From the IMG/VR virus record IMGVR_UViG_3300045988_171260: 64,000 nt of DNA, one strand, 5' to 3'. The notes beneath the pieces were generated by a model, which did not search any database, was not told where the DNA came from, and saw only the letters and a list, made by a program, of their open reading frames with translations. This stretch comes from a virus. Position 1 is the first letter of the stretch. Every line of letters starts with the position of its first letter. Shown here in pieces: positions 43,208 to 58,401 of this stretch. Both the position numbers and the translations under genes were made by a program.

Positions 43208-43302
43208 GTATCATTATCTCCTTTTCTCAATGGCGGCTATTGTCATAGCCTTTTTCTTTTTTATTATATAAATATTATATAATAATTTTTTATAAAATTC
43301 AA

Positions 43303-43375
43303 AGCCCGCGGTTGGATTCGAACCAACGATCAGGGAGTTGCAGTCCCTAGCCTTAACCAACTGGACTACGCGGGC
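43303..43375 (-). tRNA. tRNA-Cys (GCA)
   Basis: Minus strand GCCCGCG...GGGACTGCAACTCCC...GGTTCGAATCC...CGCGGGC cloverleaf. Confidence 0.75.
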
Positions 43376-43494
43376 ATAACCGACTTCTGTGGAAGTCTAG
43401 TTGCAAGAGACTTATTAATTCAACCATTTTTAGTAATATATTTTACTATAATTTTCTTATAATTGCTGTTTGTCTCTTAAAACCTTTAAAAACC

Positions 43495-43570
43495 TTTAAA
43501 TAGGAGTCGAACCTATATTCTTTGTCTTACCAATTAGACGATTAAAGGATACGTCTGCGGCTTTCGCACA
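43495..43570 (-). ncRNA. tRNA-like element lacking anticodon arm, preceded by a perfect 8-bp hairpin
   Basis: CCTTTAA-TC-GTCT...AGAC-...AGGTTCGACTCCT-TTAAAGG (acceptor, D and T arms only); hairpin gtctgcgg...ccgcagac + tttt on plus strand. Confidence 0.3.
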
Positions 43571-43787
43571 TCCGCAGACTTTTATGGAAAGGGATTGATA
43601 ATGATACTAGACAACATCTCTATAAATAACCAACTTAGTATTTTATTATTGCTGTTGTTGTCTCTACTATTAAATCAATCTTATAAATTAAAATCATTAA
43701 AATCAAGACTCTATTTTGTTGGTGCCGCTATTATTAGTAGTAGTAACAAATTAATATTGCTGAATGTGAGTCTTTAAGCACTATGTG

Positions 43788-43859
43788 GGAATCGAACCCA
43801 CATCCTCTGGTTGGAAGCCAGAAATCCTAGCCTTTAAACGAATAGTGCAAATAACAAGA
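43788..43859 (-). tRNA. tRNA-Gly (TCC)
   Basis: GCACTAT...TCTGGCTTCCAACCAGA...GTGGGTTCGATTCCCAC...ATAGTGC; D-arm atypical. Confidence 0.6.
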
Positions 43860-44022
43860 TGCTTAAAAACATTTTTAGCCATTATAATAATTTTGTCTAC
43901 GTATTGCTGTTAGCATCTTTAATTTTCATTTGAATTTGAATAATAAAATTTACAATTTGTGCAACAATTCTTTTTCTTGGGATGTTACCAACCTCACCTT
44001 GAAGTATTTTGACTCCACCACT

Positions 44023-44094
44023 TGGACCTACAGGGCTCGAACCTGTGACCCTCTGCTTGTAAGGCAGATGCTCTCCCAGCTGAGCTAAGATCCC
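44023..44094 (-). tRNA. tRNA-Val (TAC)
   Basis: GGGATCTTAGCTCAGCTGGGAGAGCATCTGCCTTACAAGCAGAGGGTCACAGGTTCGAGCCCTGTAGGTCCA. Confidence 0.8.
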
Positions 44095-44155
44095 ATTTAA
44101 TTTGGATTTTGTTTATTTGTTCCAAACATAACGATATTTTAACCGTCTATATAAA

Positions 44156-44398
44156 TTACTGAGTTACTAAGTTACTCTTTTTAATTTTAGTTTTCTTATT
44201 TTTCTCTTCTGCGTCAATATATGCCTTTATGCCCTCTTCAATTAAAGCTTCAAGTTTTAACTTTGGAGTATGCTTAATAAGCAAATCCGCTTTATGGAAT
44301 CTTCTGACTTTTTCAGCTCTTGTCTCAGTGTTACCAAACTCCAGTGCATTTGTTGCTACAAGTGTCCATCCTTTTGCCATTCTCTTTAACATATTCAA
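44156..44398 (-). CDS. hypothetical protein
   Basis: 80-aa ORF with AAAGAGGA RBS. Confidence 0.4.
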   Translation of the reverse strand: MNMLKRMAKGWTLVATNALEFGNTETRAEKVRRFHKADLLIKHTPKLKLEALIEEGIKAYIDAEEKNKKTKIKKSNLVTQ

Positions 44399-44419
44399 TC
44401 CTCTTTCTTTCTTTTGATA

Positions 44420-44455
44420 TATTTATTATATCATATTTTTTTAAAAAAATCAATT
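44420..44455 (-). promoter_or_regulatory. sigma-70-type promoter (TTGATT-N17-TATAAT)
   Basis: Minus strand ttgatttttttaaaaaaatatgatataat; drives 44156..44398. Confidence 0.5.
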
Positions 44456-44468
44456 TATTTTTTTAAGC

Positions 44469-44540
44469 ATCCCTAGTTGGAGTCGAACCAACAACATTTT
44501 GCTTAGAAGGCAAATGCTCTTATCCATTGAGCTATAGGGA
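44469..44540 (-). tRNA. tRNA-Arg (TCT)
   Basis: TCCCTATAGCTCAATGGATAAGAGCATTTGCCTTCTAAGCAAA...GGTTCGACTCC...TAGGGA. Confidence 0.75.
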
Positions 44541-55755: not shown

Positions 55756-55830
55756 CGACTCTGACGGGACTCGAACCAGTGTTATTCCACTGTGACAGAG
55801 TGGTACCATAACCAACTAGGCGACAGAGCC
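55756..55830 (-). tRNA. tRNA-Asp (GTC)
   Basis: GGCTCTG...CCACT CTGTCAC AGTGG AATAA CACTGGTTCGAGTCCCGT CAGAGTC G. Confidence 0.7.
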
Positions 55831-55899
55831 AAAACAAGATGGAATTATTTTTGCACTTAATATCCCCAATATTACGCAACATTGCTGTATCCATCTTAA

Positions 55900-55981
55900 T
55901 TGGGGAGGTAGGACTCGAACCTACGACGTTTCTTTGTCACGGTTTTACAGACCGCTACCCTCGCCGCTGGGTTACTCCCCA
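55900..55981 (-). tRNA. tRNA-Tyr (GTA), second copy
   Basis: TGGGGAG...GCGGT CTGTAAA ACCGT, variable arm GACAAAGAAACGTC, GTAGGTTCGAGTCCTAC CTCCCCA A. Confidence 0.7.
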
Positions 55982-56214
55982 TCATTATTAAGTTGGACAG
56001 CTATCCTTTAGAAGACGATGCTTCTGGAGCCTTAATAGTACCCCAAGTAATTTACCATCTCTACAAATTACCAAAGATTAGAACAATTTTCTCGTTTTGT
56101 TCATTGACGTCAGAATTTTCTGCTACGAGGTATCTGAAATATACCTTTATTTTTATATATTTATTATAACATAATTTTTTCAAAAAATCAAATGTTATAA
56201 TAAATATTTTATGA

Positions 56215-56290
56215 TGCACTCCCAATCTAAAAAACCTGTGGTTTCCTAGGAAGGATTTTCACCTTCGAGTTCCCATCATAGTGAGCGGTA
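56215..56290 (-). ncRNA. candidate small RNA bracketed by two copies of the repeated promoter block
   Basis: ~75-90 nt between promoter blocks at ~56290-56345 and ~56150-56210; contains CCUAGG-centred palindrome followed by U6; no ORF. Confidence 0.25.
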
Positions 56291-56702
56291 ACTTCTGCAT
56301 CTTTTCTTATGATATAATAATTATATCATAATTTTTTTAAAAAATCAAATTGTTTTAAACTTAGGAACAATTTTAACCCCTACCATGGTATCTAGGTCTA
56401 TTTTTTTCAGCCAGGTTTAACCTAGTTTATTTTTTTCCTTCTAAGTACGCAGACATCTTTTAGTTCATTTAATTACTTACAGGCTAACTAAGTGAGGAAT
56501 ACGCACTTTCCGCAATCTCTAAACGCCTAGGTTTTTAAAGTACAAAACCCTAAACTCGAAATTTCCTAGCTTGTTTTCTGGCACAACCTTGGATTCATTC
56601 TTGCTAAAAAAGTTTAAGCCATATGTTTTTCTTTATTTCTTATGTATTTATTATATCATAAATTTTTCAAAAAATCAATTTAAGATTTTTGTCATAACTT
56701 TT

Positions 56703-57026
56703 TTATTTACATCCTAAAAAATATCCATAATGACAAAGTAAATCTTCAATATTAGACCTTCCAACAGGATTCATTGAATGACAAACAAAACCGTATAAAG
56801 GAATTTTATTCTCCACAATATACTTCGCAATATCGTATCCTGTTTTCTTTTGACCTAAGTCATGGTCTAAACTAATAAAAACGTTACCTTGACAACAATA
56901 AATCTTTAAAGCTTTAATTGCTTGTCTATAAGTTCTACAAACAACTTTTTCTTCACCCAACCACATTAAGTTCTTTGGAATAGGTCTTTCATCGTCAACC
57001 CAAATAAAAGTTTTAACTTTGCTCAT
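56703..57026 (-). CDS. receiver-fold small protein (possibly CPR-like, RNA-repair associated)
   Basis: IWVDDERP...ISLDHDLG...TGYD...HSMNPVG pattern reminiscent of REC-like phosphate-processing domains; weak. Confidence 0.3.
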   Translation of the reverse strand: MSKVKTFIWVDDERPIPKNLMWLGEEKVVCRTYRQAIKALKIYCCQGNVFISLDHDLGQKKTGYDIAKYIVENKIPLYGFVCHSMNPVGRSNIEDLLCHYGYFLGCK

Positions 57027-57093
57027 ATTTCATTCCCTCTCTTATTTCTTATATAAATATTATATCATATTTTTTATAAAAAATCAAAAGAAA

Positions 57094-57170
57094 CAGACAG
57101 TTTAGGAATCGAACCTAAATCTAAATCTAAATTTTTGGAAAATTTTATGCTACCATTGCACCAACTGCCC
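57094..57170 (-). tRNA. tRNA-Trp (CCA)
   Basis: GGGCAGT TG GTGCAATGGTAGCAT AAATT TTCCAAA AATTT, variable with (AGATTT)2, TTAGGTTCGATTCCTAA ACTGTCT G. Confidence 0.7.
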
Positions 57171-57180
57171 TCTTAACTAT

Positions 57181-57843
57181 TTAATACCAGCCATTAGCAT
57201 CCCAAAAAGCTAACGCTGCGTCCCAACTTCCGTATCTTTCCGCCACATATTGCTCTGCAACTCGCTCTTGATTTTCTGCGGAATAATCTCCATTTAACAT
57301 AGTGTATGTTAATTGGTATCTTCCTATATACTCTCCTGTTGGGCTAATAGCATTATAATCGCCACCAGATTCTCTCTGAGCAATAATTTCTTTCGCAGAA
57401 TTAGTATATTCATATACATACTCAACTACATTATCTTCTATAGATAAATCTATATAATCTTGCTCTGTACTTAAATATTCGTTCCATGCAAAATATTGTT
57501 TACCATCTATTTCAATGATATCCCAACCATACTCTCCACTTATTCCAATTCTATGCACTTCAGTATTTGACTTTAATACCATTATTCGCTCTGAGTCGAT
57601 AGAAGGAATATTTCGAATATTCAAATTTGCTGTAGTATATACTTCTTCATCTACTCTTTCAGATGAAAAAAGTACATTCTGATTTTCTGAATCTACTATT
57701 TGAAAATCGTTATTTTCATCAACAGCAATAAGAACTGGCTCTGAATTAAATTTATTTTGATATTCAACGTTTGCCGCGGAAACTGGCAAACTTAAGCTGA
57801 ACATCATTCCGCCAATTATTAACACTTTTGTAAGATTTTTCAT
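57181..57843 (-). CDS. secreted cell-wall hydrolase: signal peptide + SH3b + Rpf/transglycosylase-like domain
   Basis: MKNLTKVLIIGGMMFSLSLPVSAANV signal peptide; SH3b-like TTANLNIRNIPSIDS...; C-terminal ESGGDYNAISPTGEYIGRYQL like Rpf [20 protein letters not shown]. Confidence 0.55.
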   Translation of the reverse strand: MKNLTKVLIIGGMMFSLSLPVSAANVEYQNKFNSEPVLIAVDENNDFQIVDSENQNVLFSSERVDEEVYTTANLNIRNIPSIDSERIMVLKSNTEVHRIGISGEYGWDIIEIDGKQYFAWNEYLSTEQDYIDLSIEDNVVEYVYEYTNSAKEIIAQRESGGDYNAISPTGEYIGRYQLTYTMLNGDYSAENQERVAEQYVAERYGSWDAALAFWDANGWY

Positions 57844-58009
57844 TGTTTTCTCGCTTTCTTTTTAGTTTTTGATCCCTATAAAGAACAGTTTAAAAATAAT
57901 TAAGAATCATTTTCAAATAAAAATTTTCAAATAAGAAAATTCTTTATAATAAGACCATAGGATCTCTTACTCTAAAATGAATTTTAAAGTAATTATTTCA
58001 TTGTTACAA

Positions 58010-58087
58010 TGCGGAATCTGGGATTCGAACCCAGGACAAACATCGCTTATAAGGCGACCGCTCTAACCTTGACTGAGCTAATCCCGC
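58010..58087 (-). tRNA. tRNA-Ile (TAT) (anticodon UAU)
   Basis: GCGGGAT TA GCTC AGTCAAGGTTA GAGC G GTCGC CTTATAA GCGAT ... CTGGGTTCGAATCCCAG ATTCCGC A. Confidence 0.65.
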
Positions 58088-58401
58088 ATATCCCCAACTG
58101 AGTCTAGCCAATGCTCTTCTGTGGGGTAGTTGATAGCTTTTGCAGATTTCGCTGCAAAGGGAGTGCATCACTGGGCTTCAGAGGTGCGAATCTCCTCTAC
58201 GCATTGAATTGGCTACTCTCCCGTCCCGCCCCTGCGTCGATACCTTATTTTACAACGCGACCTTCGAAACGTTGGTTTTTTATTTCTTTATTTCTTATGT
58301 ATTTATTATATCATAAATTTTTCAAAAAATCAATTTAAGATTTTTGTCCTATATTATAAAAATATTTTATAACATTATTATGATATAATATTTTATAAAA
58401 T

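Follow-up and report, generated by a model that had tools for sequence, protein, structure and literature searches.

A large phage tRNA array with conserved non-canonical tRNAs and tRNA-like RNAs that may partner a Ro60-like DUF2828 protein

Composition of the tRNA array

The 64-kb stretch of viral DNA analysed here (IMG/VR record IMGVR_UViG_3300045988_171260; hereafter the window) carries a large tRNA array in which ARAGORN recovers 32 genes and Infernal 33 matches to RF00005 at or above its gathering score of 29 bits (31.8-74.9 bits), all of them on the minus strand within 43303..58088, and neither program found a tRNA gene elsewhere in the window. The array stands directly upstream of a gene for a DUF2828 protein, and we think it probable that it is a working tRNA island that holds non-canonical tRNAs, decaying genes and non-decoding tRNA-derived RNAs tied to this Ro60-like protein. 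A first-pass annotation of the window had described a large array without Asn, with duplicates for Leu(TAA), Tyr, Gln and Arg and an Ile(TAT), and had proposed scoring each minus-strand gene with Infernal; the scores just given, the ARAGORN genes and a tally of the anticodons bear that description out. The anticodons cover 19 amino acids, with Asn as the sole gap. Leu(TAA), Tyr(GTA), Gln(TTG), Leu(TAG), Pro(TGG) and the CAT anticodon are present in two copies each, Glu has two TTC genes and one CTC gene, Arg has the isoacceptors TCT and ACG, and Ile(TAT) is represented.

About 26 of the genes have a canonical cloverleaf, defined here by a 7-bp acceptor, a 5-bp T stem, a 2-nt connector and a 7-nt anticodon loop. 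The genes that depart from it lie at 54086..54158 (an 8/4 fold), 47181..47251, 50591..50664 (a bulge), 43492..43548 (no anticodon arm) and 51005..51077 (an unpaired acceptor), and a permissive Rfam scan added three sub-threshold tRNA-like matches at 46535, 53976 and 45717 (26.8, 23.1 and 21.4 bits, respectively). The odd members are heterogeneous: five are conserved non-canonical tRNAs, one is an ordinary gene, three are decayed genes and at least two are non-decoding tRNA-derived RNAs. Most of them are not random defects but tRNAs of unusual, conserved shape, broken copies, or small RNAs that resemble tRNAs.

Sixteen near-consensus sigma-70-type promoters lie on the array strand (12 of the form TTGATT-17-TATAAT and four close variants), and an extended -10 element is present in most of them. 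They point to a division of the array into many short transcription units and to a host sigma factor of the Firmicute type. About 17 promoter-like sites that are nearly identical, with TTGATT or TTGAAA 17 nt from TATAAT and in most cases a TG, are spread over 43274..58333 (-). None of the tRNA genes in the window encodes CCA, so they would have to be matured by RNase P, RNase Z and a CCA-adding enzyme. The open reading frames (ORFs) of the phage favour A/U-ending codons, and the anticodon set of the array fits this preference: its 25 distinct anticodons make up a one-per-box minimal set that leaves only Asn and CGG uncovered. In this respect the array most likely works as an auxiliary decoding set, of a kind already known.

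The phage is of a lytic type, roughly 135 kb in size and from the human gut, and its host is probably a low-GC Firmicute, because the DNA has 31% GC and the promoters have extended -10 elements. An identical DUF2828 protein is found on contigs of ~129-138 kb from many human-gut metagenomes, and such contigs recur across many independent human-gut assemblies at ~100% identity. We found no near-identical deposited phage, since a megablast search of the array against INPHARED matched single tRNAs only. The layout of array, usually tRNA-Cys, and DUF2828 gene is common to 80 IMG/VR loci and 10 human-gut contigs; the related loci and contigs that we compared with the window carry L-numbers (L002, L028, L233 and so on) below. 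No relatives of the 271-aa ORF that stands at the distal end of the array were found in IMG/VR, so that for most related arrays the comparisons cover the proximal half.

Class-I-shaped leucine tRNAs

The gene at 49167..49239 had been singled out as a class-I-shaped tRNA with the Leu anticodon TAG, and its length, variable loop, A73 and score (Table 1) agree with that reading. The criterion for a bacterial class-II tRNA-Leu was a variable arm of at least 10 nt, and this gene has 5 nt. Its D-arm (GGCGGAAUGGCAUACGC) is of the Leu type, with a 3-bp stem and a long loop (10-11 nt with GG was the criterion), and is identical to the D-arm of the neighbouring Leu(CAA) gene at 49386. We found 30 class-I-shaped Leu genes in the window and the 80 related loci, with the anticodons UAG, UAA, CAA and AAG and a variable loop of at most 5 nt, and in the related arrays they often stand beside class-II Leu genes.

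An alignment of 25 distinct class-I Leu sequences indicates that this shape is maintained: 98.6% of the cells are paired, and double changes occur at 18 of the 20 pairs (201 cells), a level that none of 500 shuffles reached. A73 is invariant in the 25 aligned sequences, and all 29 distinct genes found end in A. LeuRS of E. coli requires A73 and the core formed by the D and T loops, and it does not need the long variable arm for leucylation (PMC9976931); deletion of the variable arm from the tRNA-Leu of A. aeolicus chiefly lowers the affinity (PMC2377443). We conclude from the alignment that 49167..49239 is most likely a functional, lineage-typical tRNA-Leu, and that it would be charged with leucine.

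Proline, initiator and other conserved irregular tRNAs

The first-pass annotation had placed an odd gene with a Leu-type D-arm and the anticodon TGG at 54089..54157. The gene is indeed odd and has this anticodon, but its limits and shape have to be revised to an 8/4 tRNA-Pro at 54086..54158, and its D-arm matches that of the Leu(TAG), Gln and Trp genes nearby and not the canonical Leu D-arm. We compared it with homologues in L028 (92% identical including the flanks), L008, L065, L066, L059 and L045. In these seven sequences, the window included, all 8 acceptor pairs are 100% paired and four of them show double changes; as outermost pair, L008 has C-G and the other six sequences have A-U. The T stem consists of three covarying Watson-Crick pairs and an invariant G.A at the fourth position, and over the whole alignment 10 of the 21 pairs show double changes. 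An invariant A follows the stem, and an encoded CCA then follows in L065, L066 and L045, which fixes the register of the 8-bp acceptor. A candidate G3:U70 alanine identity element in this tRNA was rejected, because in the CCA register the invariant G.U is the fourth pair counted from the end of the stem. The features of allo-tRNAs are not found either, as the variable loop has 4 nt, the D stem 4 bp and the D loop 7 nt.

The 8/4 tRNA-Pro belongs to a cassette in which GOLLD is followed by tRNA-Thr, the conserved 220-nt spacer, this tRNA-Pro, the Leu(UAA) remnant and finally Leu(UAG). This cassette is present in the window and in L084, absent from L233 and L090, and ~92% identical in the distant phage L028; in L084 the canonical tRNA-Pro is missing and the 8/4 tRNA-Pro is kept alone. 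The spacer between tRNA-Thr and the 8/4 tRNA-Pro (54159..54376 (-), ~220 nt) is conserved in blocks with L028:224-673 and holds the motif ACACAGCAA; no Rfam family matches it, and it could be a further structured RNA.

For the initiator-like gene at 50591..50664, the reported 5' strand CGCGGGG is correct, but the claim that its acceptor cannot pair was overstated, given that six other pairs form once the C1xA72 mismatch and a bulged G are allowed for (C1xA72, G2-C71, C3-G70, G4-C69, G5-C68, bulged G, G6-C, G7-C, A73). The same acceptor sequence is followed by an encoded ACCA in L071, and this fixes the register. The bulge is kept in L071 and L233, and comparison of the window with L071 reveals covariation in the D, anticodon and T stems. 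U8-A9 is standard, as is A11:U24, and the gene combines the 1x72 mismatch, CAU and A11:U24 of bacterial initiators; of their three consecutive G-C pairs the anticodon stem (CUUGG/CCAAG) has two.

Two further irregular genes, the Met gene at 47181 and the Tyr gene at 51855, are also conserved. The Met gene covaries with its counterpart in L032, and the homologues of the two genes in L032 and L034 retain irregular D-arms together with compensatory changes in the other stems. Other D-arm pairings that we tried for the Tyr gene were not conserved in L034. The CTC gene at 51554..51627, which had been listed as aberrant for a poor D-arm, is an ordinary tRNA-Glu(CUC): it scores 51.9 bits, and the G10.U25 and U13.G22 of its D stem are normal for tRNA-Glu, as in that of E. 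coli.

The compensatory changes in relatives imply selection on the structures of the class-I Leu, the 8/4 Pro, the bulged initiator, the Met gene at 47181 and the Tyr gene at 51855. As far as can be judged from sequence, most of the 'aberrant' members thus appear to behave as translational tRNAs with unusual conserved folds.

Decayed genes

Three members show a different pattern. Beginning with the T loop and continuing through 12 nt of flank, the tRNA-Glu(UUC) gene at 51005 has exactly the sequence of the gene at 51413, and its acceptor strands are unpaired for this reason; alleles with an intact acceptor are present in L087, whose DUF2828 protein is 100% identical, and in L233. It is a recent gene-conversion pseudogene. 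The match at 53976..54051 is what remains of the Leu(UAA) gene that stands at the same position in L028, and the one at 46535..46606 is probably a decayed Glu-like gene. The array is modular, and even near-identical strains differ in it by swapped cassettes and by kilobase-scale insertions, deletions and blocks.

The mini-tRNA and the YrlA-like RNA

A tRNA-like minihelix without an anticodon arm had been proposed at 43495..43570. Such an RNA exists, but with other limits: it occupies 43492..43548, and the remainder is a separate hairpin at 43553..43579. The acceptor, D and T stems of this mini-tRNA are kept with compensatory changes in the window, L235, L002 and L233. In the syntenic counterpart in L235 the anticodon arm is complete, with a 5-bp stem and a 7-nt loop (ARAGORN names this gene Ser(AGA) despite its class-I shape), in L002 the arm is degenerate, and in the window and L233 it is deleted. 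The arm is therefore dispensable, and the sequences make it unlikely that the mini-tRNA decodes. A conserved block that ends in the covarying 8-bp hairpin always precedes the mini-tRNA, and an ACAGCAA element and tRNA-Cys always follow it. BLAST returned no homologues of the mini-tRNA, and a pattern scan for its upstream hairpin returned the L002 contig only; the homologue in L235 was found by synteny. Further tRNA-like RNAs without an anticodon arm, unrelated in sequence, lie on the array strand at L006:1889-1947 (59 nt) and L032:4784-4841 (58 nt).

The second RNA of this kind is a YrlA-like RNA of 111 nt. In its fold, a 7-bp outer stem is followed by AUACAGCAA and a small hairpin, and these are followed in turn by a T-arm, a closed 7-bp acceptor-like hairpin and a D-arm; this is the architecture of YrlA and Y RNAs (a terminal stem with a permuted T-arm, closed acceptor-like stem and D-arm). 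The frame of stem and AUACAGCAA is found in 28 distinct sequences in related arrays, and its outer stem covaries while its cargo varies: it may hold the permuted module of the window, the same module with a true anticodon arm, D, anticodon and T arms in normal order without an acceptor stem, or a whole class-I Leu tRNA with CCA (L056). The window copy lacks the anticodon arm, and as a result MAFFT misaligned its 3' end among four YrlA-like RNAs.

An exact 15-mer scan of IMG/VR found a perfect 7-bp closing stem in 64 of 125 cases among the matches listed, and at least 24 more distinct members of the family that bear a T-arm occur elsewhere in IMG/VR. Among the matches listed, 24 stem-bearing elements share a locus with a DUF2828 homologue (down to 26% identity; most 35-60%), and all 24 of these listed elements are on the strand of the DUF2828 gene and 17 within 500 nt of it. 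No AUACAGCAA-stem element reaches any Rfam gathering score, and some register as partial tRNAs; YrlA was not found above threshold in 12 related loci.

Seven short elements of the window share the same frame. They are 55-74 nt long, lack tRNA-like cargo and occur on the array strand only, and they have the form (A)AGANNN WW ACAGCAA ... NNNUCUU with closing stems that covary. The pattern AGRNNNWWACAGCAA occurs 6 times in the window compared to an expectation of 0.09.

The DUF2828 protein

The protein encoded next to the array matches DUF2828, DUF7788 and, weakly, VWA_2 in Pfam, and PHROGs labels it 'RNA-binding protein'; homologues occur in 705 deposited phage records. When the AlphaFold model was compared to the PDB with Foldseek, the top four matches (9kop, 2nvo, 1yvr and 9nep) were all TROVE/Ro60 structures, followed by VWA domains. 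The Ro60 matches are full-length, with E values of 5e-5 to 1e-2 and TM scores of 0.40-0.45 for a model built from a shallow alignment (pLDDT 59). The modelled structure supports a Ro-like label for DUF2828 and does not prove it. Nothing relevant on DUF2828 was found in the searched literature.

The first-pass annotation had also suggested that the odd members might be ligands of Ro- or vault-like proteins. The Ro part of this suggestion now has comparative support in the YrlA-like RNA, which was absent from its list of loci, and the dispensable anticodon arm of the mini-tRNA is in line with it. We found no evidence that links the vault-like protein to an RNA. Linkage to DUF2828 and the YrlA-like architecture thus lend indirect support to the notion of Ro ligands.

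Other features of the array and its surroundings

The coordinates of all features are collected in Table 1. The GOLLD-like RNA in the array matches GOLLD (RF02032) with 104.2 bits (E 7e-27; model positions 1-416), which is below the gathering score of 150, and its place in a phage beside tRNA genes is the one known for GOLLD (PMC12286853, PMC6582537). The 370 nt upstream of the domain, up to tRNA-Gln at 55316 (element to ~55315), could be a variable 5' domain of this RNA. Related islands contain tmRNA (L005, L015) and ROOL (L138).

Several slots of the array differ between relatives. The window has tRNA-Val(UAC) at 44021..44095 (-), and most of L081-L088, L090 and L233 have an Ala-like tRNA there; the homologue of the window tRNA-Ala in L233 has an 8-nt anticodon loop and is reported by ARAGORN as '???(tgca)'. 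A GIY-YIG homing endonuclease gene inside the array (44837..45511 (-)) is present, absent or of another length among otherwise identical strains (L081-L090, L233, L235), and L233 and L235 have PD-(D/E)XK/NUMOD1 endonuclease genes in other slots. Suppressor tRNAs with the anticodons CUA ('Pyl') and UUA are frequent in related arrays, which suggests stop-codon recoding in parts of the phage clade; the window has none. Genes of 99 nt called 'tRNA-???(taaa)' occur at L003:6139-6237, L004:6604-6702 and L006:1483-1581 and also in L080. The tRNA-Trp(CCA) of the window (57094..57170 (-)) has a 10-nt variable region with a short direct repeat (UUUAGAUUUAGAUUUAGG) and is identical in L084 and L090.

Elsewhere in the window are genes for an RNA ligase (27865..29109), two metallophosphoesterases and a Pol-beta-type nucleotidyltransferase, and within the array are a SocA/Panacea antitoxin-domain protein (45988..46419 (-)) and a cREC domain protein (cyclic-phosphate-processing receiver; 56703..57026 (-)). 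Together, the SocA/Panacea and cREC proteins, the RNA ligase and the two metallophosphoesterases suggest an RNA-repair and anti-toxin module. Downstream of the DUF2828 gene, the order of the vault-domain, band-7/flotillin and AAA_5 genes is kept in L081-L090, L233 and L235.

Table 1. Coordinates of the array, its RNAs and neighbouring genes in the window
Feature	Coordinates	Strand	Description
Whole tRNA array	43303..58088	-	32-33 tRNA matches with small ORFs, homing endonuclease gene, tRNA-like RNAs and GOLLD-like RNA
Class-I-shaped tRNA-Leu(UAG)	49167..49239	-	73 nt; variable loop AUUUU (5 nt); A73; 61.8 bits
8/4 tRNA-Pro(UGG)	54086..54158	-	8-bp acceptor; 4-position T stem; A73; 48.2 bits
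Initiator-like tRNA(CAU)	50591..50664	-	C1xA72; A11:U24; bulged G in 3' acceptor strand; A73
tRNA(CAU) Met	47181..47251	-	71 nt; 1-nt connector; 3-bp D stem; 4-bp T stem; 43.4 bits
tRNA-Tyr(GUA)	51855..51938	-	poor D-arm; 31.8 bits; conserved in L032, L034
tRNA-Glu(CUC)	51554..51627	-	51.9 bits; homologues in L003, L004, L233
tRNA-Glu(UUC) pseudogene	51005..51077	-	35.2 bits; 3' acceptor strand and flank from gene 51413..51486
Class-II tRNA-Leu(UAA) remnant	53976..54051	-	23.1 bits; anticodon arm destroyed; syntenic with L028:967-1050
Degenerate Glu-like tRNA	46535..46606	-	26.8 bits; acceptor and anticodon stems unpaired
Mini-tRNA	43492..43548	-	57 nt; 7-bp acceptor, D-arm, T-arm, U73; no anticodon arm; 41.4 bits
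8-bp hairpin	43553..43579	-	directly upstream of mini-tRNA; covaries in L002, conserved in L235
YrlA-like RNA	46623..46733	-	111 nt; promoter ends 12 nt upstream; YrlA match 46620..46733
Short ACAGCAA stem element	43405..43478	-	between mini-tRNA and tRNA-Cys
Short ACAGCAA stem element	43609..43663	-	upstream of hairpin and mini-tRNA
Short ACAGCAA stem element	43856..43919	-	ends 7 nt before tRNA-Gly
Short ACAGCAA stem element	47334..47399	-	directly downstream of promoter; ends 5 nt before tRNA-Pro
Short ACAGCAA stem element	52725..52785	-	directly downstream of promoter
Short ACAGCAA stem element	53158..53215	-	directly downstream of promoter
Short ACAGCAA stem element	55836..55897	-	fills tRNA-Tyr/tRNA-Asp spacer
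GOLLD-like RNA (conserved domain)	54489..54944	-	directly 5' of tRNA-Thr, inside array
DUF2828/DUF7788 (VWA) protein gene	41726..43207	-	493 aa; array ends 96 nt upstream, same strand
Band-7/flotillin protein gene	35625..37190	-	downstream of DUF2828
AAA_5 (MoxR/CobS-like) ATPase gene	33365..34567	-	downstream of DUF2828
Major-vault-protein shoulder and repeat domain protein gene	30749..33238	-	downstream of DUF2828

Interpretation of the odd members

We propose that the array is transcribed from its many near-identical sigma-70-type promoters and would supply a one-tRNA-per-codon-box minimal set suited to A/U-ending codons, and that three layers may be distinguished in it. The first would consist of lineage-specific non-canonical tRNAs that are still built for charging and use: the class-I Leu keeps A73 and a Leu-type D-loop, the elements that a bacterial LeuRS requires, the 8/4 Pro keeps a 12-bp acceptor/T stack, and the initiator would work with a bulged acceptor stem. 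In the second, genes would decay through recombination between repeated flanks. In the third, the mini-tRNA and the YrlA-like RNA would no longer decode and most likely act with the Ro60-like DUF2828 protein, and by analogy with Ro60 and its Y RNAs they may contribute to RNA quality control or protection during infection.

Several observations weigh against parts of this reading. The YrlA (RF02553) match has 40 bits, under the gathering score of 69 (E 1.3e-07, with the full model matched), the Ro-binding motif GNCGAAN0-1G is absent from 46623..46733, where AUACAGCAA occupies its position, and the RNA lies 3.4 kb from the DUF2828 gene and does not adjoin it. In the 15-mer scan, which required perfect 7-bp complements, shifted controls still gave 23-28 of 125, compared to 64 of 125. 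The DUF2828 model is of low confidence (pLDDT 59, TM about 0.43-0.45), and a sequence search of the protein against the PDB returned nothing significant and no Ro60. L084, L090 and L233 lack large blocks of the array, which implies that many members are dispensable. Lastly, the ACAGCAA elements that adjoin promoters or tRNAs could be leader or processing structures unlinked to DUF2828.

This last point can be widened into the explanation that competes best with ours, although we regard it as rather unlikely: the ACAGCAA elements, including the YrlA-like RNA, and the mini-tRNA would be processing or leader signals (guides for RNase P, Z or E, or 5' protective hairpins) and not ligands of DUF2828. 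Four elements begin 5-15 nt downstream of the start sites predicted for consensus promoters and three end 4-7 nt before the 5' end of a tRNA, and tRNA-like shapes are natural substrates of RNase P and RNase Z, with the YrlA of M. smegmatis as an example of an RNA that RNase P cuts (PMC4201824). However, a simple leader has no need of the elaborate permuted tRNA-like cargo that many elements carry, and in other phages the elements cluster less than 500 nt from the DUF2828 gene, whose strand they share, and lie upstream of it as well as downstream.

It is improbable that the odd members are decoys or sacrificial substrates for host anticodon nucleases or tRNA-targeting toxins that spare the functional tRNAs. 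The RNA ligase, the two metallophosphoesterases, the cREC protein, the Pol-beta-type nucleotidyltransferase and the SocA/Panacea protein of the window suggest that tRNA damage matters to this phage, and several isoacceptors are duplicated with differing stem sequences; phage tRNAs reportedly counter anticodon nucleases. However, those odd tRNAs that are conserved have kept the features required of a working tRNA (7-nt anticodon loops, the identity elements A73 and C1xA72, and 12-bp acceptor/T stacks), neither the mini-tRNA nor the YrlA-like RNA offers an anticodon loop for cutting, and the genes that are really defective became so by recent accident and have intact alleles in sister strains. 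Least probable of all is that the odd members are merely decaying or mis-assembled, functionless genes of a fast-recombining accessory array, for despite the kilobase-scale changes and cassette swaps among near-identical strains, the homing endonuclease genes in the array and the demonstrable or probable degeneracy of 51005, 53976 and 46535, five odd tRNAs keep their features with many compensatory changes across phages whose DUF2828 proteins are 53-66% identical, and recurrence of the contigs in independent assemblies speaks against mis-assembly.

Beyond the tRNA island with DUF2828-linked RNAs that we favour, we put forward, as a tentative and somewhat doubtful extension, that a widespread clade of gut and rumen phages evolved its own tRNA shapes and a new Y-RNA-like family that partners DUF2828, with the mini-tRNA as a third, anticodon-free ligand or substrate. 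If this were true, host synthetases would still charge the tRNA shapes of the clade while the host-tRNA shape known to defence nucleases is avoided, and the 7-bp terminal stem with AUACAGCAA would carry interchangeable cargo, from nothing through permuted tRNA domains to a complete tRNA. DUF2828 is present in more than 700 deposited phage genomes without a known function, and its linkage to a conserved RNA family suggests a phage Ro/Y-RNA system.

Comparison with known systems

Phage tRNA arrays, GOLLD near tRNAs, 8/4 tRNAs and phage Y RNAs are already known. Similar to the large arrays of T4, T5, mycobacteriophages and huge phages, the present one has dozens of tRNAs on one strand, near-complete coverage, homing endonuclease genes inside and a GOLLD-like RNA beside a tRNA. 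It differs from them in that this lineage is rich in conserved non-canonical members, in its dense repeated ACAGCAA stem elements and in its constant place just upstream of a Ro60-like gene. Several such loci will be mislabelled by annotation pipelines, as seen here in the calls 'tRNA-Ser(AGA)', 'tRNA-???' and partial tRNAs.

The tRNA-Leu has a long variable arm everywhere but in animal mitochondria (PMC9976931), and we found in the searched literature no description of a conserved class-I-shaped tRNA-Leu class outside animal mitochondria, phages included. The phage genes resemble the mitochondrial ones in their Leu anticodon, A73 and lack of a long variable arm, but unlike them they keep a full bacterial-type D-arm and T-arm and coexist with class-II Leu tRNAs in the same arrays. 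This class would be a second exception to the long variable arm and a natural test of what a bacterial LeuRS requires.

The tRNA-Pro at 54086 shares the 12-bp acceptor/T branch, split 8+4, with the 8/4 tRNAs known in phages for Ser and His and also from rumen bacteria (Mukai et al. 2017, PMC5389517). From the published phage members it differs in its Pro UGG anticodon and in the conserved G.A at the fourth T-stem position, and from allo-tRNAs, which have a long variable arm and a Sec-like D-arm (long stem, tetraloop), in its class-I shape and ordinary D-arm. A Pro member is not reported in PMC5389517, from which the word 'proline' is absent, and we found no 8/4 tRNA-Pro described in the searched literature; it extends the 8/4 architecture beyond Ser, His, Cys and Sec. 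The gene at 50591 is like the tRNA-fMet of E. coli in CAU, C1xA72, G2-C71, C3-G70, A73 and A11:U24, and unlike bacterial tRNA-fMet in the bulged G of its acceptor and in having two of the three anticodon-stem G-C pairs.

We found no description of a DUF2828-linked AUACAGCAA-stem family in the searched literature. Similar to YrlA and Y RNAs with Ro60 (Rsr), its members have a terminal stem made of both RNA ends and an internal permuted tRNA-like module, and similar to YrlA (Chen et al. 2014, PMC4201824), which has also been reported in phages, they lie close to a gene whose product is probably Ro60-like. They differ from YrlA in a score below the Rfam threshold, in AUACAGCAA instead of GNCGAAN0-1G, in a partner gene of DUF2828/DUF7788 type without TROVE annotation, and in a highly variable cargo that ranges from none through permuted and normal order to a whole tRNA.

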